Shown: positions 3,001-63,996 of the stretch, one piece after another | Numbering within the stretch: the stretch's first letter is position 1 | How the letters are laid out: each line of letters opens with the position of its first letter | From: a virus | Strand: one strand, 5' to 3' | Length of the DNA stretch: 64,000 nucleotides | IMG/VR virus record: IMGVR_UViG_3300032238_000599 | Location: 80,987 to 144,986 of that record | The notes under the pieces: model-generated | Seen by the model: only the letters and a program-made list of their open reading frames with translations | Told to the model about the DNA's origin: nothing | Databases searched by the model: none | Program-made: the position numbers and the translations under genes

Positions 3001-5822
3001 ATCATGTTGTTCCGGGAACTACAATTACAAACGTTCTTGACTTAACAACAACTTATATCATTGAACCTCGTATTAACTACACTGGTCCGGGATTGTTAGG
3101 AACAAGTAGAACATTACCAGCAACTGCTACTTGGCAAGCCGCTACATATACATATGGCCAATTCTTAGCAATTGCCAACGGTAGTACAAGCACAGCATAT
3201 TCCCCAGATGGGAAAACATGGGCAAGTGCAGGTGCGTTAACAACTACATCTTATGTTGATGTAGTGTTCGGTGGCGGTGAAGGCGCAATAGCAACCGCAG
3301 TTGTTGGTGGGTTAGGAGGTGTTGGCGCAGTACTTACAGCCGCCCTAGGTCCAGGCGGTGTTGGACAAGTTCAAACAGACCAAGTTGCAACCGTAACAGT
3401 TCTTAACGGCGGTACAGGATATACAACTCCTCCAACAATCGTATTCACAGGTGGCGGCGGATCTAACGCTGTAGCTACTTGTACAGTTCTAAATGGTTCT
3501 ATTGCATCAGTAACTGTTACTGTAAACGGTAGCGCATATACTAGTGCTCCGACAGTAACAGCCGCAACAGATCGTGTAACGCAAATCAATATTGTAGCAC
3601 GTGGTAAGAATTATCTAAGTGCTCCTACCGTTACAATAAGCGGTGGAGGCTCAACTAACCAAGCTACTGGTACAGCGGTATTAACTAATAGTGGTGTAAG
3701 CTCAATTACTATTGGAAATAACGGCGGATCTGGTTATACTAGCACTCCAACAGTAACTATTTTAGATAGTACAGCAAGATATCTAGCAATTAGCGGAACA
3801 GCAGTAAACAACTGTTATCAAACAGTATCTGGAGCTATTACAGCCAGCGCTTGGACAGCAGGATCTAGTACCGGCAAGACAGATTTAAAATCTTTAGCAT
3901 ACGGACAAGTAGGCGGAGTAGGTTTATGGATTGCAGTAGGTGGTACTTCGGCAACTGCAAGTGCAGTATCAAGTTCAGATGGCGGCACAGCATGGACTGA
4001 TCGTTCAAGTGCTATTACTGCACTAAGCGCAGGATACTACGCAGGCGTTGCATTTGGTAATGGTTATTTTGTTGCTGTTAATAACGGCGGCAATAAGACA
4101 TCTTATATGACTGGTAACCCAGCAACTTGGACAGCAGGCGGAACACTACCATTTACTACAGCAGTTAGTGTTGCTTATGGTAACGGACGTTTTGTTGTAT
4201 TAGGTTCTAACGGTGCTGTTGCAATTAGTATTGATAACAGCGCAACTTGGAGCGCAATTGATACTGCAACCGGTACAACAACTAGTGTGTTATCAAGTAG
4301 CTTAACATGGTCTACAATCAGATATGGACAAGGTTTGTTCATGGCAATTGCTCAAGGTACACAAACTTGTGCAACTAGCCCAGACGGTATCAACTGGACA
4401 GTATATGCAACAGGCATGCCAAGCTCAAGCAACTGGAAAGCTCTAGCATTTGGTAATCCAACTTCTGCAACACTAGGCGCACAACCATTATGGATTGCCG
4501 CAAGTAATACATCAGGTTCAATCGCCGCAAGTATTAGAACTGGTGCTCGTCCATTAGGCCGTATGAAAGTAATTGCTGGTGTAATAACTGAAGTTCGTAT
4601 GGTAGAACCAGGAAGCGGATTCCCTAAAGGCAACGTTACTGCTACCACTGTAACAACAAACGTAATTACAACCGACGATACAACTAACTTAGTTGATAGC
4701 ATGCCAGTAGTGTTTACTGGTTGCAGTACTGGCGGTCTAGCAAACAATACAGTTTATTATGTAATTGGCGCAACTATTGTAACTAACACTAGCTTCAAAG
4801 TTAGCTTAACAGCAGGTAGTGCAACACCAGTTACACTAAGTTCACAAACTGTAACAGGTACATATCGTGCAGGTCCAATTGTAACTCAGACAGATCCTAA
4901 CAGAACTAAATCTGCTAACTTATGGTCACGCAATGGCGACGGTGCTCTTGGAAACCCAAGCTTCAACAACCGCGGTACTGGAAACATTACTGCTACAGCC
5001 GCAACAATTGGCGACGGTTATAGCGACTTGTTCCAAACAGGAACTTATGTTAACGTCACCGGTTTATACAGTCAGCCAACTCCAGGTGCAAACGTACAGT
5101 TTGGATCAATTGGCAACGTATGGTATAAACTAGTTAGTGTTGTTAACTTGTTAGGGGTTGCTGGTAACTACTCTGCTAGCTTCCAAATTAACCCAGCTCT
5201 AACTACATTAAATGCACCACCACATGCTGATACAGTAGTAACAAGATTGAAGTATTCACAAGTTCGTTTAACCGGACATGACTTCTTGTACATCGGTACT
5301 GGAAATCAAACACAAACTAACTATCCTTATGTTAACCCAAATAGCGCAATTCAGGCTAATCAAGCTAACAGTTCGGGTGGCGGACGAGTATTCTTTACAA
5401 GTACTGACCAAGACGGTAACTTCAACGTTGGTAACTTATTCGGAGTGCAACAGGCAACTGGTACTGCTACATTAAATGCTAACGCATTTAACTTGTCAGG
5501 ACTACAATCATTGCAACTGGGTTCAGTTAGTTTAGGCGTCGGAAGTGCTGTAATTACACAATTCAGTACAGATCCATACTTTACTGCTAACAGTGACAAC
5601 GTTGTTCCAACACAAAAAGCAATTAAGAGCTATATTAGCTCACAAATTGGTGGCGGAGCAAGTACTTTGAACGTAAATACATTAACAGCTGGTGTGATTT
5701 ACTTGTCTGGAAATAACATCTCAACAACGACAGGTGTTCAAATTAACGTAACAGCTAAAATGAATTTCGTAGGCGGAATAGACGGTGCTCCCGTAGCCCT
5801 TGCGTACTTCATGCAAAAATAA
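3..5822 (+). CDS. Giant virion structural / tail fibre-like protein, 5' truncated by the window edge
   Basis: The frame is open from position 3 (AYYRLEEVVNYVVQKN...). More than 1900 aa, Thr/Gly/Ala-rich, with CxRD...D repeats (CYRDAGLIVDAL, CRRDAAAIIDAM), GxGYTxxPTVT repeats, BNR-like SPDGxxW repeats and a C-terminal VPTQKAIKSYI motif typical of large T4-like phage structural proteins. Confidence 0.75.
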   Translation, partial: AYYRLEEVVNYVVQKNTSWTKSTGNSTSQITTGTAGSAASAYFASARIQDINNWVTAGSEQTTASAFTGSTSTTTLTVTAITSGTIVAGSCLTGGAIAAGTYINTQLTATNAATATTTATASSGATSITVASATNIVAGQLITATNIPQGTFVRNDYVSGTTINLVTIYGSPVQTLGALSTTSISFYAPGNTGTYQISVSQAQSSTTLTGNASITPVTSGAYALATSALQTAWTALQARRTEIQSDTVVWVQKFYQNVNFNAGTTSPCYRDAGLIVDALGWDMVLGTNFNSITVGRSYYRAIASAQLVLSSQKNAEIGAIQFIGYKAKMVASSGASAQLTQMIDDIKEYINGTTSITCTATTATTNVITTSSTANLVLGMPIVFTGTVAGGIVAGQTYYVLAIPSSTTFTVTSASGSTVALTLTTTTSQSFAGVQTSLQTYGTITYDNTLATIKGAEILRANKTFLSYEASAYITATYTYSVTTTTASNDRFTVSGTHAFVTGDPVVFSGTPFAGSGVTAGTVYYVTSTPTSATFTVSATQGGTNIDISSNGSGTFTVAYSFDATSCRRDAAAIIDAMVYDLQYTGNYKSLRAAQLYVNAINGSKLENMFLVRNGTGVRNMTLQGLNGTLTQVNVYGTKRPTAGAYVALDPGFGPNDTNVWITTRSCYSQNVTMFGTGCSGGKVDAALHAGGNKSMVKNDFTTIISDGIGVWCTGAGSLTELVSVFNYYGYAGYLAELGGRIRATNGNSSYGTYGVIAEGTDTYETSINATVTNRANQALISNVVTDSVNKVWRFEYSNAGNAYTNTVHTISGTGYNAAATADEFRDAAIFETRIVDLNDNNGVGGTNYVTQSNAAQGGAVGEITIAATDTALSTAYTGMRIQITAGTGVGQYANILNYNNGNKKAIIYKDSFATLTITATTNGSPSTVTVASTSTLYANMPFLVASTVGGLTLNTVYYVKTIVNATTFSVSSTAGGTAFTSEITTTTAQSVSLYAAGWDHVVPGTTITNVLDLTTTYIIEPRINYTGPGLLGTSRTLPATATWQAATYTYGQFLAIANGSTSTAYSPDGKTWASAGALTTTSYVDVVFGGGEGAIATAVVGGLGGVGAVLTAALGPGGVGQVQTDQVATVTVLNGGTGYTTPPTIVFTGGGGSNAVATCTVLNGSIASVTVTVNGSAYTSAPTVTAATDRVTQINIVARGKNYLSAPTVTISGGGSTNQATGTAVLTNSGVSSITIGNNGGSGYTSTPTVTILDSTARYLAISGTAVNNCYQTVSGAITASAWTAGSSTGKTDLKSLAYGQVGGVGLWIAVGGTSATASAVSSSDGGTAWTDRSSAITALSAGYYAGVAFGNGYFVAVNNGGNKTSYMTGNPATWTAGGTLPFTTAVSVAYGNGRFVVLGSNGAVAISIDNSATWSAIDTATGTTTSVLSSSLTWSTIRYGQGLFMAIAQGTQTCATSPDGINWTVYATGMPSSSNWKALAFGNPTSATLGAQPLWIAASNTSGSIAASIRTGARPLGRMKVIAGVITEVRMVEPGSGFPKGNVTATTVTTNVITTDDTTNLVDSMPVVFTGCSTGGLANNTVYYVIGATIVTNTSFKVSLTAGSATPVTLSSQTVTGTYRAGPIVTQTDPNRTKSANLWSRNGDGALGNPSFNNRGTGNITATAATIGDGYSDLFQTGTYVNVTGLYSQPTPGANVQFGSIGNVWYKLVSVVNLLGVAGNYSASFQINPALTTLNAPPHADTVVTRLKYSQVRLTGHDFLYIGTGNQTQTNYPYVNPNSAIQANQANSSGGGRVFFTSTDQDGNFNVGNLFGVQQATGTATLNANAFNLSGLQSLQLGSVSLGVGSAVITQFSTDPYFTANSDNVVPTQKAIKSYISSQIGGGASTLNVNTLTAGVIYLSGNNISTTTGVQINVTAKMNFVGGIDGAPVALAYFMQK

Positions 5823-15735: not shown

Positions 15736-16328
15736 CACAAATTAAACTTGTTCCTTTATTTCATTCTGATCTTTTTATCTTAGAAAACGTAGGTACTCGA
15801 GAACAAATCGATGCTCTAGTAAAACAAATTGCCGCCGAGAAAAAATCAGGCGCGGTAACACAGCCTCGCTCCAATGAAGGGTGCTGGCGAAGCAGTAGTA
15901 TGTGGACTGATATTGATTGGTTATACAAACGTATTGAAGAATTATTACAAACTGCTATAGACCACTACACTAAAATTGATAATGATTTTAAACCAGGTCC
16001 TGGAGTTACAGTAGAACAATGGACAAATGTAAATGATCCTGGATCAAGAAATGTGTTTCACGCTCATAAGTCGGCAGCATTTTCAGTGTGCTACTACATG
16101 CAAGCATCTGGGACCGGAGCATTACGGTTTGTAAATCCTAGTAACATTCTTAATGACTGCAATCACATAAGTCCCTTTACAAGAGGATTTCCTTACTATC
16201 CTAATGATAGAGATTTAGTGTTGTGGCCAGCATGGCTTCCGCACGAAGTAGAACCAAACTTATCAAAAAAACAACGCATTAATATGGCGTTTGACATAAC
16301 TTTTAAAGACACTACATCTCCTCAATGA
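15732..16328 (+). CDS. 2OG-Fe(II) oxygenase (TIGR02466-like, HxH type)
   Basis: WTNVN, HAH, FSVCYY, LWPAWLPHEV and RINMAF motifs. Confidence 0.8.
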   Translation: MTQIKLVPLFHSDLFILENVGTREQIDALVKQIAAEKKSGAVTQPRSNEGCWRSSSMWTDIDWLYKRIEELLQTAIDHYTKIDNDFKPGPGVTVEQWTNVNDPGSRNVFHAHKSAAFSVCYYMQASGTGALRFVNPSNILNDCNHISPFTRGFPYYPNDRDLVLWPAWLPHEVEPNLSKKQRINMAFDITFKDTTSPQ

Positions 16329-45539: not shown

Positions 45540-46385
45540 ATGCAAAAAATTTCAAGTTATTTATTACACAATAGAATAGAGTTGGTTGCCGATTTGGCAG
45601 GATTTATCACGGAGTATAAACCAGTGTACAAAAGACATATCAGAGTCTATCGCGGAATAGACAATCTATTAGAATTCGACGTTAAAAACGCCGATCAAAA
45701 ACGCATTGACTTAGGAGAGTTTGACACTTTAGAAATGCATGTGATGGACAATACCGGACAAGCATTACCAAGTAGCCCGTATACTGTAGAACCCTTAGAT
45801 CAAGAAACATCTAAGGGACTAGCTACAGTAACTATCCCAGCAATTGATTTAGACGGTCTTATTGCACAGGGGCTAACTTATTCTGTTGTTGCAAATGGCA
45901 ATACTATTCTTTATGCTGATAGCAGATTTGGAGCGAGTGGAAATATCGATTTAATTACTACAGCTATCCCAGTAGCTAAGCCTGTACAAAAATATGATCA
46001 TTTCTTAGGACTAGGCGATTTTAACAATACAACTATAACATATACTAGCGATGCAGTTAGTTTAAGAACAAGAGATGCTGTTCCTCCAAATCATATTCAT
46101 GTGGAAATTTCAGTTACAAATCTTAAAGGTACCATATGGGTAGAAGCAACAAAACAAGAAGTTATTGGGCACGAATCGTTTACTCATAGTAATGGCACAA
46201 GAGTCTATGAACAAGTTTTAAACCCGGCAACTACTGACACTATTACAGTTCCGTTAATTGATTTATTAGAAACTGGTTATACTTATATACGTGTTAATTG
46301 GACTACAGACCCAACTATAACAACTGGTAAAATTGATTTTTTCACAGTAGAATTCCACGCTCATCCTCCAGAAGTACCATGTTAA
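45540..46385 (+). CDS. Probable structural (baseplate/Ig-like) protein
   Basis: TAAATA at 45517 and AAGGA RBS before ATG 45540; beta-rich; VYRGIDN..F.VKN.DQK motif. Confidence 0.5.
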   Translation: MQKISSYLLHNRIELVADLAGFITEYKPVYKRHIRVYRGIDNLLEFDVKNADQKRIDLGEFDTLEMHVMDNTGQALPSSPYTVEPLDQETSKGLATVTIPAIDLDGLIAQGLTYSVVANGNTILYADSRFGASGNIDLITTAIPVAKPVQKYDHFLGLGDFNNTTITYTSDAVSLRTRDAVPPNHIHVEISVTNLKGTIWVEATKQEVIGHESFTHSNGTRVYEQVLNPATTDTITVPLIDLLETGYTYIRVNWTTDPTITTGKIDFFTVEFHAHPPEVPC

Positions 46386-47447: not shown

Positions 47448-47544
47448 TTTTATATTAACCCCGTGGCGCAAATGGAAACAGCATCAAGAGTACAAAAAAC
47501 GTCTTAAAGAAATTCAAGAACGAGATCCGTTTATATACAAATGA
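47431..47544 (+). CDS. 37-aa basic peptide ending in RDPFIYK (not in the ORF track)
   Basis: AAGGA RBS; MKKLINFILTPWRKWKQHQEYKKRLKEIQERDPFIYK; ATGA overlap with the carbamoyltransferase. Confidence 0.65.
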   Translation: MKKLINFILTPWRKWKQHQEYKKRLKEIQERDPFIYK

Positions 47545-49016
47545 TTACGTGGGGAATATCAGCAAACAGTCATGACGCGGCATTAGCTGTGTTTCTTGAC
47601 GAGCACTTAGTATTTGCTAGTCATAGCGAAAGATTTAGCAAGAAGAAAAACGACAAGCACTTGTGCAAAGAACTTGTCGATTATGCTAAAAATAAATTCT
47701 ATGGACTACCAGATCGAGTGTACTGGTATGAAAATCCTTATTTAAAAACAGCAAGACAACTGTATGCAGGGCAAGGATGGAAGTGGGAAGACAATGATAT
47801 AAAATCATATCTAAGCCGTTGGAATATTAATGGACGATTACATTATACTAATCATCATCGTAGTCATGCCGCTACTGGTTATTTTACTAGTGGCTTTGAC
47901 GATGCTTGTATTTTAGTAATTGATGCCATCGGAGAATTCGAAACTCTTACTATTTGGAAAGCAGAAGGTAATCGATTAAAGAAATTATACAGTAAGTGGT
48001 TTCCAAATAGTATTGGATTATTTTACAGCGCCATTACGCAACGACTAGCCCTACGTCCTTTAGAAGATGAATATATTTTAATGGGTATGAGTGCATATGG
48101 CAATGTTGACAACTTGTATACTCGTATGCGAGACGATTTTGTAGACAAATATCACGACTACACTTTTGCTAAAAATTTACACAGAGGTTGTTTAGATTGG
48201 GCGCCAGACCTAACAGTCAATGACAGTTTTGACGTTGCTGCCGCTACACAAGAAATATATGAAAGATTTTTTGAAACAGCACTAGGACATGCTAAAAAAT
48301 TAACAGGTAGCAACAATCTAGTCTTAATGGGCGGCTGTGCTCTTAACTGTGTTGCTAATCGATTAACAGGCAAGTATTTTGATAATACTTGGATTATGCC
48401 TAACCCTGGAGATGCAGGTAGTGCTATCGGTGCAGTACTGGCACACAACCCTCAGTGGCGTATTGAACCCAAACATTTCACTCCTTTCTTAGGATATGAT
48501 ATGGGGTACAAATCTACCAATGAAGAAATTGTAGATTATTTGATAGAAAATAAAATTTGCGGTGTTGCAAGAGGGCCCGCAGAGTTTGGGCCTAGAGCAT
48601 TAGGCAACAGAAGTTTGTTAGCCGATCCTCGGGGTAATGATATAAAGGAACGTGTAAATGATATTAAAAGAAGAGAACAATTTAGACCATTTGCGCCAGT
48701 TATTCTGGAGGAGTTATGTGATACTTACTTTGATATGCCTAATGGTTGGAGTAACAGTAGGTATATGCAAGTCATCGCTCGCTGTAGGGTTCCTGAGCTT
48801 TTTCCTGCTATTGTGCATCACGACGGCACTTCTCGTGTACAAACTGTCTCGAGAGACGGATCACCATTGCGACTGTTGCTCGAAAGATGGTATACATTAA
48901 CTGGTTGCCCAATGTTACTAAACACTAGTTTAAACATTAAAGGACGGCCAATGGTTAATGACCATGCTGATGCAAGAACATTTGAAGCCCACCATAATGT
49001 TAGGGTATTCACATAA
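47541..49016 (+). CDS. O-carbamoyltransferase (NodU/CmcH/TobZ family)
   Basis: HDAA, ERFSKKK, HHRSHAA, DAIGE, GGCALN, PGDAG, EFGPRALGNRS, RPFAP, DGTSRVQTV and LNTSLN motifs. Confidence 0.93.
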   Translation: MITWGISANSHDAALAVFLDEHLVFASHSERFSKKKNDKHLCKELVDYAKNKFYGLPDRVYWYENPYLKTARQLYAGQGWKWEDNDIKSYLSRWNINGRLHYTNHHRSHAATGYFTSGFDDACILVIDAIGEFETLTIWKAEGNRLKKLYSKWFPNSIGLFYSAITQRLALRPLEDEYILMGMSAYGNVDNLYTRMRDDFVDKYHDYTFAKNLHRGCLDWAPDLTVNDSFDVAAATQEIYERFFETALGHAKKLTGSNNLVLMGGCALNCVANRLTGKYFDNTWIMPNPGDAGSAIGAVLAHNPQWRIEPKHFTPFLGYDMGYKSTNEEIVDYLIENKICGVARGPAEFGPRALGNRSLLADPRGNDIKERVNDIKRREQFRPFAPVILEELCDTYFDMPNGWSNSRYMQVIARCRVPELFPAIVHHDGTSRVQTVSRDGSPLRLLLERWYTLTGCPMLLNTSLNIKGRPMVNDHADARTFEAHHNVRVFT

Positions 49017-53138: not shown

Positions 53139-56100
53139 ATGTCAAAGAAACTGATTAGCACTTATAAGTTTGTACCAGGAATTGTAGTTCCTGACACAGC
53201 CTTATATCCAAATTGTACAGCACTTTTAGAAGCAAACAAAAAGTTTCTTCAAGAAGAAACTATTGCATATATTCAATACAACAGCGCCAACAACATTGCA
53301 CCGTTTGTCTACTATACTTACAATGCAGATAAATGCCGTCGTGACGTTAGTTATGTTCTAGAAGGTTACCTAAGCGATTTAAAACACGGTGGCAACAAAC
53401 AAACTGTACACAACGCACAGAAATATTTTGAAAACGGTATTCCTCAAGTAGACGGAGATCGTACTCCTGAAATTGCCGCGCATACATTTATTAAAAACTT
53501 AGTTCAAAACTTTGTATTGGCTAATATTGTTTATAGTGCTCGTAATACTGTAATATCACAAGTAACATTACCTATAACTGCTGAAGCTCTTGGAAAAACA
53601 AAACTATCAGATCTAAATGACATAATTGTTAACGTAATTACTAACGGTCTAACTAGTTTACCTGCTATTTCAACTAATCGCGGATATGTTAAGTTCCCAG
53701 GTTTTTACAAGCTAAAAGACATTCTTTTAATTACAAATACATCAAGAAACATCATTATGTATAACTTTGCTGATCCTTCATACAAGGCAGAAGTTACATA
53801 TTATGAAACAGCAGATAGCGATTTCCCAGGTGCATTGTACGGCACAGATAAGATTACTACAGTAACATTTGATATTGATACAAGTGCCATGATGGTCACT
53901 GACAATATTCAAATTTACGTCTCGGCTAAGAGTTTAGAAGTTAGACTTAACCCAATCGGTACTGACGCTATGGAACGTCAAAAGGTTGGTATTCCACAGT
54001 CCATGCTTGACGCGGACTTTGAGTACGGACTACAACCAACTAAGTGGCAGGCCATCTCTATGATGCGTAACTATCCTGCGGTTTACGAAATTCCAAGTAG
54101 TGACCAATCAGTTATTAGTGTTACAACTGATGCAAGTACATCGACAGCTAATACCGGTGCTAGTTTAATTACAGTTACAACAGTATCGCCACACGGGTTT
54201 GTTGTAAATACACCGTTTACAATTAAAGCTCTTGCTAACTCAGTTAACGGATTTAGCCGTGCTGAAGGAACATTCTTAGTTAACTCTGTTCCAACTACAA
54301 CATCATTTACCTACTATTCAAAATCAAAAGTAGGTACAAGTAACGGACAGTTATTAAGTTCAACCTATACTCAGCTACGTAAAGCATCCTATTATACCGG
54401 TGCTGCCGTAGGTAATCCAACATTCTCAGTGTATAGTGCAGGTTCGAGCGGTACTATAACAACAGTATTTACAACTGATATTAGCCAGGATCGTATTGGT
54501 TTTAGTGGTGCAATACCTCCACTAGGTGCTCCAATTACAGGTACAGGTATTCCATCCGGTGCTCAAATTACTGCTATTAACGGCCCAGGAGGAACTGGCG
54601 CAACTACATCATTAACTGTTACAGCTAACATCGGCGATACTAGTATTGTTGTTGATAATACTACAGGTATTGTTCCTGGTATGGTTATTGACCGCGGCGA
54701 TGGCACAGCAGTTCAAGTTGCTGACATTAGCGGTAATACTGTAACACTAAGTGGTGCCTTAACAGCACAGACGCTAGGAAGCACCCAGAGCTACACTGGA
54801 TTAAGTCAATCGTCTACTAACGGCACAGGTAGTGGTGCTGTGTTTACAGTTTCAAGAACTGCAGGTAGTTATATTACAACAGTTACTAATCCAGGCGGCG
54901 GATATTTGCAAGGTGATGTTTGTGTTATTGCAGGTACTAGTTTAGGCGGATTAGCGCCAACAAATAATGCCACTATTACAGTTACTTCAGCTAGTGATAA
55001 AAATACAGTAGCAACATTTTCCGGCGGCTCATTAGTTGCATCATCTGCATACAATCCAAGTTCTACTACTAACTTAGCTACCACAGGTGGTAACGGTACT
55101 GGATTAACAGTTGATGTAACATTAGATGGAAGTAATGTTCCAACTAGCGTAATTATTAAAACTCCTGGTAAGAACTATACTCCAGGAAGTACAGTAAAAA
55201 TTCTTAGCGGAGTAACACGAGGTGTTGTGTTATCAACTGGTATTAGAGTTCCAGGTAGCGGATATACTACAACTAATAACGTAGCAGTAAGTGGCGGTAG
55301 CGGAACAGGACTTACTGTCGATATTGTAGCAGATCCCGTAGGTGGAGTAAAACAAGTTAACATTGGCAATGCTGGCTCAGGATATTCTAACAGTCAAGTT
55401 AGTCCAACTGGTGGCAGCGGCACTGGATTAGTAGTATCCATTGGAACTAGTGGCGGATCTATTATTAGTATTAGTATTAATAATAGAGGTAGCGGATATA
55501 CAGTTGGTAATACATTGACAATTCCAGGAGGTAGTGGAACTGCTACTATTACAGTTACCGGGTCGGTAACTAATGCTGAAGTTACAAACGTTACAATTAA
55601 TAACCCTGGATCTGGATATGTTTCTGGCGAAACAGTTACAATTCCCGGCGGCACAGGTAGTAATTTCCAAATTGGTAACGTAACAGCAGATGCTACTATA
55701 CAGATTGGCACCGTTAATACCGGTGGTGTTATTCTTAGTGTTAATACTTCAGGCACAACAATTAGTAGCCCAACAAAGAACTTTATCAGTGCAATTACAA
55801 TTAGTGATTTAACAACAGCTTCAGTGCCATCAGGTACATCATTAAGTTATAGTGCTATTGCTACTATTGAAGTAGCATTTAGTACAGCTCACGGATTTGT
55901 TCCAGGTAATACAATTACAGCACAGATTACAAGTACAGACACTGGAGCCCAGTTAGCCGCTGGTGCATACTTTGTTGAAAACGTTCCAACGCCAACTACT
56001 TTACGCTATACAGCACGTACAGCTGGTACAATCGCTAACACGTTAACTGGTATCTTGTATGCTCGTCCAGACTCATTCTTTATTCATAGACCGTTTGACG

Positions 56101-59100
56101 GTGGTGTACAATTAGGTACGGCGAGCCCAGCTCACGGCGCCGCCGCAATTCGTATGAGTAAGAAATACATTCGTTACCAATCAGGTAAGGGTGTTATGTA
56201 CAACACAGGTGCTCTATTTGCTCCATCATATGACTTACGTAGTCTAGTAGCAACTGGAACTACAGCTGGTAACCTTATCACAGTTACTACAGACGATACT
56301 GACCACGGCTGTCAGGTAGGTAGTCAGATTACAATTACTGGTGTAACAACTAGCGGTTATAATAATATCTATACTGTACAAGATATTATTAACGAACGTG
56401 TACTAACGGTAGTTGCTAAATCAGCACTAGGTAATGCTAATGCACAACTAGGTAACCCATGTCAAATGACTGTACGTACATGGCATGGTTCTACAGTACG
56501 TGCAGGTATCTTCGATGATCAAAACGGTATGTTTTGGCAATACGACGGACAAAAGATGGCTGTTGTACAGCGTTCGAGTACATTCCAGATTGCAGGAACT
56601 ATTGCCATTGCCGCTAACTCAAATGCTGTTACAGGTAACAATACTCGCTTTACACAACAATTAGCCGCTGGTGACCGTGTGGTTATTCGCGGTATGAGTC
56701 ATATTATTACTGCTATTGCTAGTGATACTAGTATGACTGTTGCTCCAGACTATCGTGGTGTTAACAACGCGACTGAAGTTAAAATTGTTAAGACTGTTGA
56801 CAAAGTTGTTCCACAAGAATACTGGAACGGTGATGCTTGTAACGGTTCTGGACAAAGTGGTTACAATCTAGATGTAACTAAAATGCAGATGATTGGTATT
56901 CAGCACACATGGTACGGTGCTGGATTTATTGACTTTATGTTAAGAGGCAGTGAAGGTAACTATATCTTCGTACACCGCTTCCGTAACTCAAACGTTAACA
57001 CAGAAGCTTACATGCGTACAGGTAACCAGCCAGTTCGTTATGACGTTACCAACGAAGGCGCCCGTGGTAAACTACGTGAAGATATGAATGCTCAACAAAC
57101 ATATATTCCGTTAGTAGCAGGCGATGCTTATTGGTTCCCAACTGCTGGTACAATATACATTGATAACGAAATGATTCGTTACACAGGTAATGACGGCACT
57201 AACTTAACTGGTTGTACCCGTGGTGCTACACTAACACAGTTTGCCGCAGGTAGTCAGCGTACATTCGTTGGCGGCATTGCCACAACACACTCGGCTAATA
57301 CAGGTGGTGTGTTGATTTCAAATACTATTACTCCAAACATTAGTCACTGGGGTAGTGCGTTTATGATTGACGGCCAGTTTGACAGTGACCGTGGTTACAT
57401 TTTTAACTATGCGGCTACTGGTGTAAGCGTTTCAGTTGATAAGAAAACAGCTTTCCTAATGCGTCTAGCACCTAGTGTTTCAAACGCACAAACAGGCGAC
57501 CTAGGCGATAAAGAACTACTAAACAGAGCGCAGTTGCTACTAAGTCAGATTTCTGTAACTAGCGATAGTGTGTCAGGAGGTGGCGCGATTGTTGTTGAAG
57601 GCGTAATTAACCCAAGTAACTATCCAGATGATCCTACTAAGATTACCTGGACTGGTTTGAACTCGGCTGCGGCTGGTGGACAGCCATCCTTTACACAGAT
57701 TGCTAACGGTGGTTCTGTATCATGGGGCGGTGGCGCTTCAACTAGCACAGCTACAATTCAAGGTGCGTTTACTACAACAATTACAGCTAAGTCATTCAGC
57801 CCAATTACTACAACCTTTACAGCTACCAGCTTCAGTACAGTTACACAAAACTTAACTGCAACTAGCTTTGGCACAACAAGCAACACTGGTACTATTACAG
57901 CACGTGGTAACCTAGCTGGAACTTTTGGTGCTACCTATGCATCTGCAATCAATACAGCACGTAGAGATATCATGGTCTTAACTACAGACTACGACAACTA
58001 CATTCTTACTAACACTATGAGTGTAGGTGATACACTAGCTGTAACCTCAGTACTAACAGTTAACACTAAGATTACTAGCATTACAAGAAACGTGTCAGGT
58101 ACTGCGTATACACAAATCCAGTTTGACTTAACACCGGCTGCTTCTACAGCAGGTACAGGTAACCAAGCAGTAACAGTGACGCTTGTACTAGGTGCAACAT
58201 ACAATACTGCATTGAGCTCAACACGTACAGACTTTTTAATTACTAACGCACAATATGACGGATTTACTGCAACACCATTGCGTGTAGGGGATGGGCTAAG
58301 TGTTGCTACCTACTTAACTGGTGGACAAACGGTACAGTCATTTACACGTAACTATGTGATTATTAACGGTACTGGATATACACGTATTGTTATGTCAGCG
58401 GCTGCTACATCAAGCAGTCCAGTTGCCGCAAGTAACGGTGCTCAAAACATTACGGTGGTTGACACTAACGCTTTAACAGTAACGTTTGCCTCAGCCATTT
58501 CGAGTGTAAGAGCTACATTCTTAGTGCCACAAACACAGGCAGCTTCCACTACAGCCAAGATCAATGACGTACTAAGTACTGCTACATATCTAGCTGGTGG
58601 ACAAACACTATCTAGTATTACACAGAACTATGCCACACTTGGCGGTACAGCCTATGCGCTAGTTACCATGAGTGGTGTAGGTACACTATCAAGTACTACA
58701 GGAACAGGTAACAACTTGACTATCACTGTTACATCAGCTGATACAAGTACATATGGCCGTGCGCTGTCAACAGGTCGTGTGGACTTCTTGATCACTGATA
58801 CAGAATACAATGCCAGCGGTATTTTAGCAGGTGACGGTCTAAGTGTTGCCACATACTTAACCGGTGGACAAACTATTATCAGTGCTACACCAGGTTATAC
58901 CACAATCAGTTCAGTAAGTTACACACGTATTGTTATGTCAGCGGCAGCTAACTCTAGTTCAACTAGCGGTGGCGGCAATGATATTACTATTACTGTAACA
59001 GCCGCAGGTAGTTCTGCTAGCTATGCGTCAACTAACTACTTGTTCTTTACAAGTGCTAGCTGGACAGCATCAAACGCCATTGTTGGTACACGAGTTGCGT

Positions 59101-59471
59101 CAGATCAAACACAGTATCCATCAGGTACATCTGTATCTACTGTAAGCACACGTACATTCGGTGCTACAACAGTATATCGTGTGGTATTTACACAGTCAGC
59201 TAACACTACGCAAAACGCGGCGTCAACACTGAAATTCCAGTTCGGCGCTAACTATGCCTTACCAGGTGAACAAGTTTTTGCGTTCGTATCCAACCCAGGA
59301 TCAACTGACATATTACCATTGTTAGACTTGAAGGAATTAACATCAACTGCCATTGGTGGACGTGGTACATTCCCTAACGGTCCGGACGTATTGGCTATCA
59401 ACGTGTATAAGGTTGCAGGAACCGCTACTAACGCCAGCTTAACAGTACGTTGGTCAGAAGCACAGGCTTAA
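53139..59471 (+). CDS. Giant virion structural protein (baseplate wedge / long-fibre-like, 2110 aa)
   Basis: KCRRDVSY repeat, DADFEYGLQPTKW, GSGY repeats, RYQSGKG, WYGAG and SHWGS motifs found in large T4-like structural proteins. Confidence 0.75.
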   Translation: MSKKLISTYKFVPGIVVPDTALYPNCTALLEANKKFLQEETIAYIQYNSANNIAPFVYYTYNADKCRRDVSYVLEGYLSDLKHGGNKQTVHNAQKYFENGIPQVDGDRTPEIAAHTFIKNLVQNFVLANIVYSARNTVISQVTLPITAEALGKTKLSDLNDIIVNVITNGLTSLPAISTNRGYVKFPGFYKLKDILLITNTSRNIIMYNFADPSYKAEVTYYETADSDFPGALYGTDKITTVTFDIDTSAMMVTDNIQIYVSAKSLEVRLNPIGTDAMERQKVGIPQSMLDADFEYGLQPTKWQAISMMRNYPAVYEIPSSDQSVISVTTDASTSTANTGASLITVTTVSPHGFVVNTPFTIKALANSVNGFSRAEGTFLVNSVPTTTSFTYYSKSKVGTSNGQLLSSTYTQLRKASYYTGAAVGNPTFSVYSAGSSGTITTVFTTDISQDRIGFSGAIPPLGAPITGTGIPSGAQITAINGPGGTGATTSLTVTANIGDTSIVVDNTTGIVPGMVIDRGDGTAVQVADISGNTVTLSGALTAQTLGSTQSYTGLSQSSTNGTGSGAVFTVSRTAGSYITTVTNPGGGYLQGDVCVIAGTSLGGLAPTNNATITVTSASDKNTVATFSGGSLVASSAYNPSSTTNLATTGGNGTGLTVDVTLDGSNVPTSVIIKTPGKNYTPGSTVKILSGVTRGVVLSTGIRVPGSGYTTTNNVAVSGGSGTGLTVDIVADPVGGVKQVNIGNAGSGYSNSQVSPTGGSGTGLVVSIGTSGGSIISISINNRGSGYTVGNTLTIPGGSGTATITVTGSVTNAEVTNVTINNPGSGYVSGETVTIPGGTGSNFQIGNVTADATIQIGTVNTGGVILSVNTSGTTISSPTKNFISAITISDLTTASVPSGTSLSYSAIATIEVAFSTAHGFVPGNTITAQITSTDTGAQLAAGAYFVENVPTPTTLRYTARTAGTIANTLTGILYARPDSFFIHRPFDGGVQLGTASPAHGAAAIRMSKKYIRYQSGKGVMYNTGALFAPSYDLRSLVATGTTAGNLITVTTDDTDHGCQVGSQITITGVTTSGYNNIYTVQDIINERVLTVVAKSALGNANAQLGNPCQMTVRTWHGSTVRAGIFDDQNGMFWQYDGQKMAVVQRSSTFQIAGTIAIAANSNAVTGNNTRFTQQLAAGDRVVIRGMSHIITAIASDTSMTVAPDYRGVNNATEVKIVKTVDKVVPQEYWNGDACNGSGQSGYNLDVTKMQMIGIQHTWYGAGFIDFMLRGSEGNYIFVHRFRNSNVNTEAYMRTGNQPVRYDVTNEGARGKLREDMNAQQTYIPLVAGDAYWFPTAGTIYIDNEMIRYTGNDGTNLTGCTRGATLTQFAAGSQRTFVGGIATTHSANTGGVLISNTITPNISHWGSAFMIDGQFDSDRGYIFNYAATGVSVSVDKKTAFLMRLAPSVSNAQTGDLGDKELLNRAQLLLSQISVTSDSVSGGGAIVVEGVINPSNYPDDPTKITWTGLNSAAAGGQPSFTQIANGGSVSWGGGASTSTATIQGAFTTTITAKSFSPITTTFTATSFSTVTQNLTATSFGTTSNTGTITARGNLAGTFGATYASAINTARRDIMVLTTDYDNYILTNTMSVGDTLAVTSVLTVNTKITSITRNVSGTAYTQIQFDLTPAASTAGTGNQAVTVTLVLGATYNTALSSTRTDFLITNAQYDGFTATPLRVGDGLSVATYLTGGQTVQSFTRNYVIINGTGYTRIVMSAAATSSSPVAASNGAQNITVVDTNALTVTFASAISSVRATFLVPQTQAASTTAKINDVLSTATYLAGGQTLSSITQNYATLGGTAYALVTMSGVGTLSSTTGTGNNLTITVTSADTSTYGRALSTGRVDFLITDTEYNASGILAGDGLSVATYLTGGQTIISATPGYTTISSVSYTRIVMSAAANSSSTSGGGNDITITVTAAGSSASYASTNYLFFTSASWTASNAIVGTRVASDQTQYPSGTSVSTVSTRTFGATTVYRVVFTQSANTTQNAASTLKFQFGANYALPGEQVFAFVSNPGSTDILPLLDLKELTSTAIGGRGTFPNGPDVLAINVYKVAGTATNASLTVRWSEAQA
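57930..59050 (+). repeat. Four approximately 90-aa tandem domain repeats within the giant protein
   Basis: T(Y/F)xxA(I/L)...(G/N)DxLxxxxxL recurs four times; GDGLSVATYLTGGQT and YTRIVMSAAA each occur twice. Confidence 0.75.
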
Positions 59472-59732: not shown

Positions 59733-59923
59733 CGCCTACGTTCCCACCACATGATCCAATTGCCTGTATGTGCTAGGGCCATGACAAACCACATCAAAGG
59801 CATTTCCCAAGAGCCCATTAACGAGCTAGAACAGATGCTAGGCGGTGCTAACCAACTGACGACCGCCCCCGTATAGAACAAGGGCGCTGGCACTAGACTG
59901 ATTACAGTATTAACTAACTTCAT
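59693..59923 (-). CDS. Small membrane protein
   Basis: Two hydrophobic segments; ATGA overlap with the upstream oxygenase gene. Confidence 0.5.
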   Translation of the reverse strand: MKLVNTVISLVPAPLFYTGAVVSWLAPPSICSSSLMGSWEMPLMWFVMALAHTGNWIMWWERRRYVKYQTLPVKQQ

Positions 59924-60492
59924 TTCTTGTTGGGACGTAGCCCTAGCTGTGGACGACCATCATAGGCCAAGTGCTTGTTGGCGCCAAGAGCATCTACATA
60001 ATGCATGAAAACTTGTAGGCAACCTAAGCCTGTAAATGGCTCACGCCAATGGGTAACATCACAGCCTTTATAGGTAGCCGCATCTCCAGGTTGTAGCACA
60101 ATAGCTTCCCCATCCATGTAGATAGGCCAAGGTTCGGGATCTGCCAATAAATTCATAGTTAGCGAGTATTCACAGCTGGGTCGATCTGTATGCTGAACCA
60201 TACGAGCACCCTGCCAATGATAACGAGCATAGCTATATGTAGGTATAAGTTCTACTCCCCAATGCGCTTCTACAACAGGCTTTAGAGTAGCCAGTAGTCC
60301 TTCTGTAATAGCGGGCGCATAGATATCCCAGCAAGTGTCAGTTACCGATCCCTTGGCAGTAAAAGCAGAGTAATCGCTACGATCTGTTCCAGTTAGAAAG
60401 TATAGGTTTTCACGAGTTTGATTAAGTGTATTGATCATTAACAAGCGAGTCTGCTCATTGACAATTTGGGGTATCACATCGTATTTTTTCAT
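59920..60492 (-). CDS. 2OG-Fe(II) oxygenase
   Basis: PTYSYAR, HTDRPSCEYS, WPIY, HWRE and QVFMHYV motifs; start ATG 60492, 5 nt after a minus-strand TAAATA. Confidence 0.8.
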   Translation of the reverse strand: MKKYDVIPQIVNEQTRLLMINTLNQTRENLYFLTGTDRSDYSAFTAKGSVTDTCWDIYAPAITEGLLATLKPVVEAHWGVELIPTYSYARYHWQGARMVQHTDRPSCEYSLTMNLLADPEPWPIYMDGEAIVLQPGDAATYKGCDVTHWREPFTGLGCLQVFMHYVDALGANKHLAYDGRPQLGLRPNKK

Positions 60493-60551
60493 ATACATAT
60501 TTACTAGTGCTTTTTATCCCTAGCCGCAAACTTGAATAAATATATGCACTT

Positions 60552-61309: not shown

Positions 61310-61492
61310 CTAGAGTGTGCGCGAAACTTCTAACAAGTATTCACTGTGAGCAAGCAGTAGTCCCTGTCCATTTGCATCTGGACGCATATAATAATACTCT
61401 AACCATACTAGAGCACCACTACGCATACGTTGGGGCAACCATGCATAAAAGCGTGTATAGGTACGATCGTTGACTGTGTATATTTTACGCAT
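61310..61492 (-). CDS. Small hypothetical protein
   Basis: RFYAWLP..M.SG..VWLE.Y motif seen in small phage proteins; overlaps the upstream stop. Confidence 0.55.
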   Translation of the reverse strand: MRKIYTVNDRTYTRFYAWLPQRMRSGALVWLEYYYMRPDANGQGLLLAHSEYLLEVSRTL

Positions 61493-61700
61493 TGGGTAAT
61501 CCTGTAGCTAGATCTAGACTAGGATCTACATAGTGAGCACAGTCTGAAAAGCGTAAGATGAACTCTGTATATACTGTGCCCGTGGGAACCCAAAAGCGTG
61601 TACGGTTTAAGTGTACTTCACAGCGTAATTTATAGTGTGCAATAAAGTCGAAAACTTCACGACAACGTGGATCTGAGTTTAGCACGTAATAGTGATGCAT
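61485..61700 (-). CDS. Small hypothetical protein
   Basis: GGAG RBS; EVHLNRTRFWVP motif. Confidence 0.55.
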   Translation of the reverse strand: MHHYYVLNSDPRCREVFDFIAHYKLRCEVHLNRTRFWVPTGTVYTEFILRFSDCAHYVDPSLDLATGLPNA

Positions 61701-61991
61701 AGTAACTCCATGAGAATTTCCAATAATACGGGATCGAGTTCAAGAGGGGCAATCATAATATTATATAGCCCGATCGGGGTCTACACATCAAAAAAAATAT
61801 TTTTGTAAAATTTTTTAGAGCCCGAAATGGTACCGGCATGGTGAAAAAATTACCGCGCAAAAAATATACATGGAGTACTTTTCTTTTCAGGGTGGTGATT
61901 CTAACTCGGTGGCGTTAGGGTTGTTGCGTTTTAGCAACTGTTTATAATGTATAGCCCCGACCCCCCACTCCCTTCACCATCCGACCGAGAG

Positions 61992-62035
61992 AAAAAAAAA
62001 TCCTAGGAGCCGGGAGCGAATCGGACATCCTAGGA
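61992..62035 (-). terminator. Intrinsic terminator of the early operon
   Basis: TCCTAGGA...TCCTAGGA stem followed on the minus strand by nine T. Confidence 0.75.
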
Positions 62036-62129
62036 CGCAAAACATCTAGGCATTGCACCCGATGTTTTTAGGTTACTGTAGGTAAATACTCTGCCGGGAG
62101 CGAATCGGTCTTATCAGTATCTACTACAG
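61992..62129 (-). ncRNA. Candidate structured RNA (three hairpins, the last an intrinsic terminator) with two CCG-AUUCGCUCC-CGG loops
   Basis: Exact 16-bp repeat GCCGGGAGCGAATCGG at 62009-62024 and 62093-62108, each enclosed by a longer stem; G-U pairs and a U9 tail support the minus strand. Confidence 0.6.
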
Positions 62130-62134
62130 CGTAG

Positions 62135-63034
62135 TTAAGCCCTACGCATTACAGTAACCTCAGCAACAGCTTGCCAGCGATCTGGAAAGCTCTTCTTCAA
62201 GTCTGCTAACTTGAGCACAGTCCTAAGACTTAGCTCGCGCAGTTTCTTCTTATTGTCTTCCATAAACTCTACGACTTCACGAGTACCTTCTTCCCCGAAG
62301 TCATAGCTATCTAACATACCACAGTCTCTGATCACTTGCTTGATACGCAAGACCTTCTCACGCTCTGTGTCAATAGTCAAGTCCAAATAGTGGCAACGGC
62401 TCTCAATAGCTTCCAAGTGATCACGAAGCTTCTTGCTCTTAACGTGCTCGAACTTAATATTAGTAATGAACACACAGCCGCCATTGTACTCAAATGAGTT
62501 GGGCACACCTTCTTGACGTAGGAGTCTGCTGTCAGTGTTCCAATGGATAGTACGCTTCTTGCTTGTATCCAGAGCTGCCTTGAGAATGTTCAAGCTCAAG
62601 TCATCAAGCAGTACTGAGTCGCAGTCATCGAACACAAGGATGCTCTTCTTATCACTGAACTCGTAGAGCTTCTTATAGAGTCCAATAGCTGACATTGCAC
62701 CCTTGACGATCTCGTACTTCTTGAGCTTCTCGTCCTGTGCTACAGTAGCAAACACATCGTGCTTGCTGAGTACACTCTCTACACCAAATGACTTGCCCAC
62801 ACCCGGAGGGCCTGTAACGATCATTGCTCTCACAGCGCCCTTCTTAACGGCACGTGTCATGTCGTCTAGGATTTCAAAGCGATCCTTCAAACGAGTCATG
62901 ATAGCTTCGTCTGACTCTTTGGCTACTGCGGCTTCTTTGGCTCGCTGTACCTGCGTGTCTACCTCAAGGCTAGCTGTAGTACCTTTAGAACTCTTGCGCT
63001 GTGCCAGCATCTCCATTGTTACAACTCTGCTCAT
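62135..63034 (-). CDS. P-loop (AAA+-like) ATPase, early gene
   Basis: GPPGVGKS Walker A, LVFDDCD Walker B, FITN and SR arginine finger; RBS AGGAGCGACA. Confidence 0.85.
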   Translation of the reverse strand: MSRVVTMEMLAQRKSSKGTTASLEVDTQVQRAKEAAVAKESDEAIMTRLKDRFEILDDMTRAVKKGAVRAMIVTGPPGVGKSFGVESVLSKHDVFATVAQDEKLKKYEIVKGAMSAIGLYKKLYEFSDKKSILVFDDCDSVLLDDLSLNILKAALDTSKKRTIHWNTDSRLLRQEGVPNSFEYNGGCVFITNIKFEHVKSKKLRDHLEAIESRCHYLDLTIDTEREKVLRIKQVIRDCGMLDSYDFGEEGTREVVEFMEDNKKKLRELSLRTVLKLADLKKSFPDRWQAVAEVTVMRRA

Positions 63035-63062
63035 TGTCGCTCCTGTGTGTTGTTAAGTGTCT

Positions 63063-63091
63063 ATTATACTATGTCTAGTCTTGGCAGTCAA
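63063..63091 (-). promoter_or_regulatory. sigma70 early promoter
   Basis: TTGACT-N17-TATAAT on the minus strand. Confidence 0.85.
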
Positions 63092-63243
63092 CTAGTTTGG
63101 CTTACTCGTTTGACCCAGGCTTGCCCATTGTACTGAGCTTCTACCATAGCCTGGGCCTGTGCTTGACTAGGAGCCTCAACAACCTGGCGGACTTCGCTGG
63201 TTGCTGAGTTAGTGCCCAATTGGAATATGACTTCGTACTGCAT
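63088..63243 (-). CDS. 51-aa hypothetical early protein (not in the ORF track)
   Basis: MQYEVIFQLGTNSATSEVRQVVEAPSQAQAQAMVEAQYNGQAWVKRVSQTS; TAATG overlap with the upstream gene; fills the gap exactly. Confidence 0.65.
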   Translation of the reverse strand: MQYEVIFQLGTNSATSEVRQVVEAPSQAQAQAMVEAQYNGQAWVKRVSQTS

Positions 63244-63566
63244 TAGTCTAGTCTCGATCCTGCGTAGGCTTTGAGTCCCAGGGCCTGTAGGAAGTTGGCT
63301 AGTGCATAGGCACCCGCTTCTTTGATGTCCACGTTCTGTACAGGCAAGTCACCTGGGTTCCAAAGGCTAAGGCATTTGGGTTTGTAGTCCTTGCGGAAGC
63401 CTGCTCGGATCAGTTCCTGCGCTTGCTTTGAGTTAGTACGATCTACATAGACCTCTACCCAAGCAAATCCACATGCACCGCGATCGCCGCCCCACTTTTG
63501 GTATTCAGCCATTGATGCCTGTTTAGCTAGGGTAAAGCCCGGTTGAATCATTTCTGCTGTAATCAT
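63243..63566 (-). CDS. Hypothetical early protein (GACGFAWV motif)
   Basis: Start moved to ATG 63566 with RBS AGGAGCGACACT; ends AGSRLD. Confidence 0.7.
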   Translation of the reverse strand: MITAEMIQPGFTLAKQASMAEYQKWGGDRGACGFAWVEVYVDRTNSKQAQELIRAGFRKDYKPKCLSLWNPGDLPVQNVDIKEAGAYALANFLQALGLKAYAGSRLD

Positions 63567-63600
63567 AGTGTCGCTCCTATTAATTGCTGTTGAAGTAGTT

Positions 63601-63629
63601 ATTATACTGTCTTTAGACCCAACTGTCAA
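63601..63629 (-). promoter_or_regulatory. Consensus sigma70 early promoter
   Basis: TTGACA-N17-TATAAT on the minus strand, overlapping the 3' end of the upstream gene. Confidence 0.88.
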
Positions 63630-63996
63630 CCATTACTACGGGCTTCTTCAGCACTCGTTTGACAAAGTCCTCGGGCTCGTCATCGCAACGCACTAGCATA
63701 AAGCCCATGCTCTCTACCAAGTCTACCTCGCAGATCTGTACGTCTATGCCTGCTTTGTCCAGGGCAATGTTCATCTTAGTCAGGGCATACTTGACGCCTG
63801 CTTCAAACACCATATGGTCTGTGTTGGTGACTTCTTCAAAGTCAAACTCTTTCTCCATGACCTCTGCGTACTCCTCACCGTCTGCTACGATGAAAGGGCG
63901 GATCTTCTTCCAGGCCTTTTGATCGGTACAGTCAAAGTGGTCACAGGCTTCGTTGAGGTCAAAGCTCGCGAAGTTGTCATAATTTGTTTTAGCCAT
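63613..63996 (-). CDS. Acidic hypothetical early protein
   Basis: 127-aa ORF with the same codon style as the other early genes. Confidence 0.65.
   Translation of the reverse strand: MAKTNYDNFASFDLNEACDHFDCTDQKAWKKIRPFIVADGEEYAEVMEKEFDFEEVTNTDHMVFEAGVKYALTKMNIALDKAGIDVQICEVDLVESMGFMLVRCDDEPEDFVKRVLKKPVVMVDSWV

Follow-up and report, generated by a model that had tools for sequence, protein, structure and literature searches.

The untranslated region at the 3' end (3'UTR) of an early ATPase gene in an uncultured, T4-like jumbo phage carries hairpin loops that are complementary to an extended ribosome-binding site (RBS) of this gene and of further early genes, and in diverged relatives loop and RBS have changed together. 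The gene lies in the last 64 kb of the 144,986-bp IMG/VR virus record IMGVR_UViG_3300032238_000599; this 64,000-nucleotide stretch is referred to as the window, and positions are those of the window unless stated otherwise. That the source is a jumbo phage follows from related contigs of 345-400 kb, which are rated 94-100% complete, compared to a completeness of 39% for the record (CheckV). We propose that the ATPase 3'UTR is probably an anti-RBS RNA, which would repress the ATPase mRNA and, in the clade whose early RBSs contain the heptamer GGAGCGA (the tag), the other tagged early mRNAs. The predicted pairing of tag and loop is well supported by computation. We infer that the two RNAs would pair in vivo, that the effect would be repressive, and when in the infection it would act.

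The features of the early block in the window are the following, in the order of transcription:

63613..63996, minus strand: first early gene in the window, 127 amino acids (aa), from the list of open reading frames (ORFs); its own RBS is lost at the contig end
63601..63629, minus strand: promoter P1, sigma-70-type early promoter, TTGACA-17-TATAAT, 12/12 matches
63567..63578, minus strand: tagged RBS 1, AGGAGCGACACU / AGGAGCGACACT-ATG, with GGAGCGA at 63571-63577
63243..63566, minus strand: early gene, 107 aa, phrog_22149, function unknown (ORF list and PHROG)
63088..63243, minus strand: 51-aa ORF without a separate RBS, whose ATG overlaps the preceding stop codon (TAATG)
63063..63091, minus strand: promoter P2, sigma-70-type early promoter, TTGACT-17-TATAAT, 11/12 matches
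63035..63044, minus strand: tagged RBS 2, AGGAGCGACA-ATG, of the ATPase gene, with GGAGCGA at 63037-63043
62135..63034, minus strand: early AAA-type ATPase, 299 aa, phrog_1250, function unknown (Pfam AAA_16/AAA)
62075..62130, minus strand: hairpin 1 (HP1), with the 15-mer CCGAUUCGCUCCCGG at 62094-62108 and the anti-tag UCGCUCC at 62097-62103
62039..62068, minus strand: hairpin 2 (HP2), without anti-tag, variable or absent in relatives
62001..62035, minus strand: hairpin 3 (HP3), the stem of an intrinsic terminator, with the identical 15-mer at 62010-62024 and the anti-tag at 62013-62019
61992..62000, minus strand: U9 (T9) tract, second part of the terminator and end of the early transcript

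Past the ATPase stop codon, the minus strand thus reads as three hairpins followed by U9. HP1 and HP3 have unrelated stems and a common 15-nt apex, CCG-AUUCGCUCC-CGG, and in the whole 145-kb record this 15-mer occurs only in these two loops. Its core, UCGCUCC, is the exact complement of GGAGCGA. Both promoter-proximal genes share the RBS AGGAGCGAC behind near-perfect sigma-70 promoters, and AGGAGCGAC is likewise confined to these two RBSs in the record; the remaining GGAGCGA sites in the window, at 15866-15872 (minus strand) and 45930-45936 (plus strand), are not at gene starts. A preliminary description of this DNA had pointed out the three hairpins with their U9 tract, the identical apical loop on unrelated outer stems, the extended RBS common to the two genes and its exact complementarity to the loop, and each of these was recovered as described.

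The element folds on the minus strand with a minimum free energy (MFE) of -46 kcal/mol (z score -2.78), which was equalled by 1 of 200 shuffles, whereas the fold of the plus strand is no better than that of shuffled sequences (z score -0.64). HP3 (-17.1 kcal/mol, z score -3.21) followed by U9 has the properties of a rho-independent terminator; a simple terminator scanner missed it because the loop is longer than 8 nt. The duplex of RBS 1 with the loop 11-mer was calculated at -13.1 kcal/mol, compared to -6.5 kcal/mol with the canonical anti-Shine-Dalgarno (anti-SD) sequence. RNAcofold of the leaders with the 3'UTR gave only small ddG values (changes in free energy), of -2.3 and -3.7 kcal/mol via opening of HP3 or pairing of the U-tract, in a method that cannot model the pairing of a loop in a closed hairpin. 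Promoters and SD sequences in the window look compatible with E. coli, and the 51-aa ORF is probably translationally coupled to the 107-aa gene, as judged from the overlapping start and stop codons. The RBS that the 127-aa gene has lost can be seen in a 356-kb relative (G001), in which the homologue has GGGAGCGACC-N5-ATG and a sigma-70 promoter upstream (site 3201).

Conservation and co-variation of loop and tag

A search of viral contigs with the ATPase led to 199 related loci, of which the best 80 (68-81% protein identity) were compared. Nearly all of these 80 loci have one to three hairpins past the ATPase stop codon with the loop GAU-UCGCUCC-C. What 101 distinct hairpins have in common is only the 15-mer, on unrelated stems (92 distinct flank pairs); their 7-nt core has no paired base in 77% of the MFE folds, compared to 9% with shuffled flanks. 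At least 120 viral contigs contain the exact 15-mer. In some of these contigs it terminates other early transcripts, namely those of genes of ~90 aa and ~101 aa, whose own RBSs are untagged and whose homologues both sit in the early block of G001. The strand of the element is assigned from the orientation of the gene, from the U-tract (a run of T5 or longer follows the last loop in 52/66 loci) and from the stop codon, since the first copy of the motif overlaps the ATPase TGA in 8 loci.

The tag is characteristic of early RBSs. In the loop-bearing contigs, which together comprise 994 kb, 351 of the 580 GGAGCGA sites are RBSs, counted as sites before ORFs of at least 40 codons. The 504 distinct tagged RBSs have the consensus A-GGAGCGA-A at 2-5 nt from the ATG, and 89% of them are preceded by a -10 box whose end lies 16-24 nt upstream, so that tagged leaders are very short. 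There are 10-16 tagged genes per genome. G001 has 25 GGAGCGA sites, 16 of which are RBSs; 10 of these 16 lie behind TTGAC-N17-TATAAT promoters and are clustered around the ATPase gene, at the two contig ends. In five large relatives, 'third' copies of the loop 11-mer are sense-strand RBSs of the form GGGAGCGAAUC-N2-5-ATG, that is, 11-nt complements of the loop. The calculated duplexes of tagged RBS regions with the loop range from -13 to -19 kcal/mol, compared to genome medians of about -5 kcal/mol and to about -6.5 to -8.8 kcal/mol with the canonical anti-SD. One tagged gene of G001 (278600-279550; L216/L217) encodes a 194-aa membrane-like protein, and its leader has two copies of GGAGCGAAUC, which are 10-11-nt loop complements; the gene is divergent from a neighbour that, as judged by eye, encodes a cold-shock protein of the CspA type.

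The co-variation of tag and loop was analyzed in the loci of lower-identity ATPase representatives, in which each RBS region was compared with its own 3'UTR; for one distant representative (P0144) no viral contigs were found. The pairs are listed with the RBS first and the 3'UTR second:

L231: GAUGGAGCG / CGCUCCAUC
L245, L260, L261, L265: GGAGGAGCAA / UUGCUCCUCC
L266, L267: GAGGAGCAAG / CUUGCUCCUC
L271, L280, L282: GGAGAGAG(A) / (U)CUCUCUCC
L277: AGGAGUAACUA / UAGUUACUCCU, overlapping the stop codon
L283: AAGGAGCAA / UUGCUCCUU
L259: UGAGAGGU / ACCUCUCA, twice in tandem
L246: AAAGGAACAGA / UCUGUUCCUUU
L297: CAUCCACGCAAA / UUUGCGUGGAUG
L332: GAGGGCA / UGCCCUC, shuffle p about 0.12

With the exception of L332, the shuffle p values of the individual lineages range from 0.0005 to 0.06. 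L273 is a G.U intermediate between the pairs of L277 and L283; a series of A-U, G.U and G-C also occurs. When every RBS region was compared with every 3'UTR across 12 lineages, the pairs from the same locus summed to 111, compared to 76 +/- 5 (maximum 101) for permuted partners, and none of 50,000 permutations reached 111. In the folds of L231, L245 and L246, the complement lies in the open loop of the first hairpin past the stop codon, with a separate terminator behind it. In about ten lineages the 3'UTR keeps, with changed sequences, a complement of the SD region in its own mRNA. Neither tag nor loop was found in L233-243, L251, L253, L255, L256, L288-290, L294, T4 and Cassandra; inspection of the RBS and the 3' region of T4 NrdC.10 by eye revealed no complement, and an 8-nt match in the Pseudomonas phage Cassandra (PA5oct-like) was discounted, as it sits inside a stem.

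Among the tests that the preliminary description had named for its proposal, two are computational, namely conservation of the loop together with its co-variation with the RBS, and enrichment of the tag in early genes, and both turned out in its favor: the core of the loop does not vary among about 100 distinct hairpins with unrelated stems, the tag is found almost only at RBSs that follow sigma-70 -10 boxes at the short distance given above, and in diverged lineages the RBS of the ATPase gene and its 3'UTR have changed together.

Proposed regulation and alternative explanations

In the mechanism that we propose, the hairpin loops would hold (G)AUUCGCUCC(C) open, and this sequence would pair with the private tag (A)GGAGCGA(A), in which CGA(A) prolongs the SD into the spacer. 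The tag would mark the ATPase mRNA together with other promoter-proximal early mRNAs made by the host sigma-70 RNA polymerase. As the duplex would cover the SD together with the spacer and leave only the last 2-5 nt before the AUG free, it is expected to block binding of the 30S ribosomal subunit, and it might in addition be a nuclease substrate; the outcome would be that translation of early genes is limited or shut off. The loop could reach its target within the same mRNA (5'UTR to 3'UTR), between mRNAs, or as a stable 3' fragment shielded by the terminator hairpin. A delayed shut-off or timer would need a fragment that outlives the mRNAs, because anti-tag and targets share promoters. Regulation of the ATPase gene by itself probably came first, and the early-gene regulon was probably added later in the GGAGCGA clade, since the RBS of the ATPase gene itself is the most conserved partner of the 3'UTR; the many diverged lineages that have the tag nowhere but in the ATPase RBS and, inverted, in the 3'UTR point the same way.

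A more far-reaching version, which we offer only tentatively, is a lock-and-key temporal code made of RNA alone, in which a lineage-private SD extension on immediate-early mRNAs and a terminator-linked anti-code would turn early translation off without a protein. Because the codes differ between lineages, a phage could distinguish between its own early mRNAs and the early mRNAs of a relative in the same cell, and a role in superinfection or competition is possible.

Several observations weigh against the proposed repression by an anti-RBS RNA. In the window alone the 7-nt complement is weak, since 314 of 2000 shuffles did as well (p about 0.16) when one 22-nt RBS region was compared with 170 nt of 3'UTR; the significance of the match between tag and loop therefore comes from the relatives and not from the window alone. 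The preliminary description had also argued for the minus strand from G-U pairs in the stems. This holds for the fold of the window; in the relatives, however, the outer stems of the 101 hairpins have 52 G.U pairs on the coding strand compared to 90 on the opposite strand. Folding energy fails to single out the coding strand as well, and isolated hairpins fold slightly better on the opposite one. A third tagged RBS, outside the window, precedes the gene of an 828-aa DUF1565 (beta-helix) protein (positions 62556-65052 of the record; L335:257-2753), which looks structural rather than early; this tag may be due to chance or mark a real late target. Furthermore, with a loop of 9 nt and an apical stem of 3 bp, the helix can hardly exceed about 7-8 bp. 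Regulator and targets belong to the same promoter class, and unless a longer-lived fragment exists, the circuit is simple negative feedback. Finally, an inverted double-stranded DNA (dsDNA) site for one protein would give 'complementary' co-variation, too.

It is rather unlikely that the regulation is confined to the ATPase gene, with the 3'UTR pairing only with its own RBS, as in icaR or OppZ, and the other tags being a copied promoter-leader cassette. Such self-regulation would agree with the many diverged lineages in which the tag occurs only twice within ~9 kb, namely in the RBS of the ATPase gene and, in inverted orientation, in the 3'UTR of this gene, and with the fact that the longest complements are always those with the ATPase's own RBS. 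However, in L040, L051 and L075 the ATPase RBS is untagged, while the UCGCUCC loops are kept unchanged and neighboring early genes are tagged, and the same hairpin stands behind two other early genes with untagged RBSs. These loci and hairpins, and also the number of tagged genes in a genome (10-16), suggest that other mRNAs are targets as well in the GGAGCGA clade. There are also two loops in the window and up to three in relatives, and tagged genes elsewhere in the genome have 10-11-nt complements, both of which speak against the ATPase mRNA as the sole target.

Quite improbable, in our judgment, is a pairing that does not repress. The T4 endoribonuclease RegB inactivates early mRNAs by cutting GGAG sites, and such cleavage of early mRNAs is known in T4-like phages; the loops might accordingly shield tagged RBSs from a GGAG-cutting nuclease, or they might tether or stabilize early mRNAs. 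The evidence for pairing agrees with these roles, too. A duplex over the SD, however, blocks initiation by default, and four relatives with a completeness of at least 94% revealed no RegB homologue (PF10715), in a search that gave no match in the control genomes either and thus lacked a positive control.

We regard it as very improbable that no RNA-RNA pairing takes place and that a protein instead reads an inverted dsDNA site at the ends of early units, or that separate proteins bind tag and loop. Sequence co-variation alone cannot separate an inverted DNA site from an RNA complement. The position of the anti-tag does speak against a DNA site: it lies in an open apex on freely varying stems, as seen in the unpaired core of most folds, and the strand is always the transcribed one, with the stop codon before the anti-tag and the U-tract after it. 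In addition, the tag keeps an SD-like spacing to the ATG, and the intermediate in L273 is compatible with G.U pairing. Hardly credible, finally, is the plus-strand transcript that the preliminary description had considered, whose GGAGCGA loops would act as a decoy for an RBS-binding factor: the apical CCG/CGG stem is possible on either strand and isolated hairpins fold slightly better on this one, but it has no T-run, the whole element does not fold there better than shuffles, and the element follows the ATPase stop codon directly on the coding strand, in some loci overlapping it, and ends in a U-tract.

Genome surroundings

The ATPase is homologous to T4 NrdC.10 over most of the protein (36% identity, E 2e-53) and matches phrog_1250 (E 1.8e-83), for which the PHROG function entry is 'unknown'. 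A sequence search revealed no relative in the PDB, and the first protein search yielded more than 8000 relatives of the ATPase. A DNA search of the phage collection with the element region gave no match. The contig end falls inside the early block, part of which is thus missing.

Among the genes of the phage are those of a terminase and a helicase, and there are two giant ORFs, located at 3-5822 (plus strand, at least 1939 aa) and at 53139-59471 (plus strand, 2110 aa); the latter has no Pfam match at E 0.01. Two further proteins resemble auxiliary-metabolism functions, a ferrochelatase-like protein (59920-60498, minus strand, phrog_2954) and a Nol-like carbamoyltransferase (47541-49016, plus strand, phrog_1601).

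A 38-codon ORF with a GTG start (61942-62058, minus strand) runs over HP2, HP3 and the terminator and is most likely spurious. Downstream of the terminator, at 61975-61860 (minus strand), we observed a conserved non-coding stretch common to many relatives. It contains, in this order, a G-rich box with a TATA sequence behind it (GGGGGTCGGGGC-TATAcAT), a small hairpin (CTGTTG..CAACAG), and GGTGc-AAATCACC and AAGTACTT..TTTTTT-GCGCG. The stretch has no match in Rfam; it may represent promoters of a second class or a further non-coding RNA. A similar box, CCCCGATCGGGC-TATATAAT, is found ~200 nt beyond (61790-61755, minus strand), upstream of small ORFs at 61700..61485 and 61492..61310.

Comparison with known regulators

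No Rfam family matched the window at the gathering score. The element itself gave only chance, terminator-driven matches at E values up to 10 (anti-hemB and NsiR1, ~14 bits each), and the loci of four relatives gave nothing relevant. In the literature, our searches for the motif and for anti-SD RNAs of phages came across no account of such a system.

The Gram-positive regulators RNAIII and RsaE use C-rich hairpin loops to seed pairing with SD sequences. The phage element likewise faces an SD with an unpaired C-rich loop; unlike these regulators, which target ordinary G-rich host SDs, its target carries the additional CGA(A), which would specify a gene class defined by the phage. With T4 RegB it has a functional analogy only, namely the selective inactivation of early mRNAs via GGAG-containing RBSs; RegB is a protein nuclease, whereas the phage element would consist of RNA only. 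What is known of post-transcriptional control in lytic phages concerns mostly proteins of model phages, for example RegA and RegB of T4. If our proposal is true, very abundant uncultured T4-like and jumbo phages of freshwater and marine habitats would use RNA instead of protein, which would provide a compact, protein-free way of programming the switch from early to middle genes. It would also provide a natural set of orthogonal RBS/anti-RBS pairs and a signature by which early genes could be recognized in the genomes of uncultured phages.

Among regulators acting from a 3'UTR, the icaR mRNA of Staphylococcus aureus is close to the phage element: its 3'UTR motif UCCCCUG pairs with the SD of the same mRNA (PMC3868564). 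In both cases the 3'UTR contains an anti-SD motif that is the complement of the mRNA's own RBS, and a block of initiation and a double-stranded nuclease substrate are the expected consequences. The phage element differs from icaR in that it is encoded by a phage, in that its motif lies in one to three hairpin loops including that of the terminator, and in that its target is an SD with a private tag common to many early genes, with tag and loop co-diversifying.

OppZ and CarZ of Vibrio cholerae are autoregulatory small RNAs (sRNAs) derived from 3'UTRs (PMC7398697). They resemble our proposal in the location of the regulator at the 3' end of its target operon, in the shared terminator and in negative feedback by base-pairing, and the phage element indeed sits at an operon 3' end and shares the intrinsic terminator formed by HP3 and U9 past the ATPase stop codon. 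Compared to OppZ and CarZ, the targets of the phage element would reach beyond its own operon, and its setting is the early block of a lytic phage.

In architecture, the element is similar to the cuckoo/CcsR sRNAs of Alphaproteobacteria, which have two to four adjacent hairpins with highly variable stems and the loop motif CCUCCUCCC (PMC4615179). Adjacent hairpins with free stems and an identical pyrimidine-rich, anti-SD-like loop are found in the phage as well. In contrast to these sRNAs, the loop in the window is AUUCGCUCC and not CCUCCUCCC, and it belongs to a 3'UTR and not to a stand-alone gene. As a separate observation, the large loop in the lineage with the GGAGGAGCAA tag (L245:1159-1201 and the 3'UTRs of L260 and L261) contains the motif CCUCCUCCC that defines cuckoo/CcsR, which may reflect convergence or be a hint about the host. 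Overall, the element is a variant of the known anti-SD and 3'UTR regulators, and it stands out from them by its private, co-evolving RBS code.

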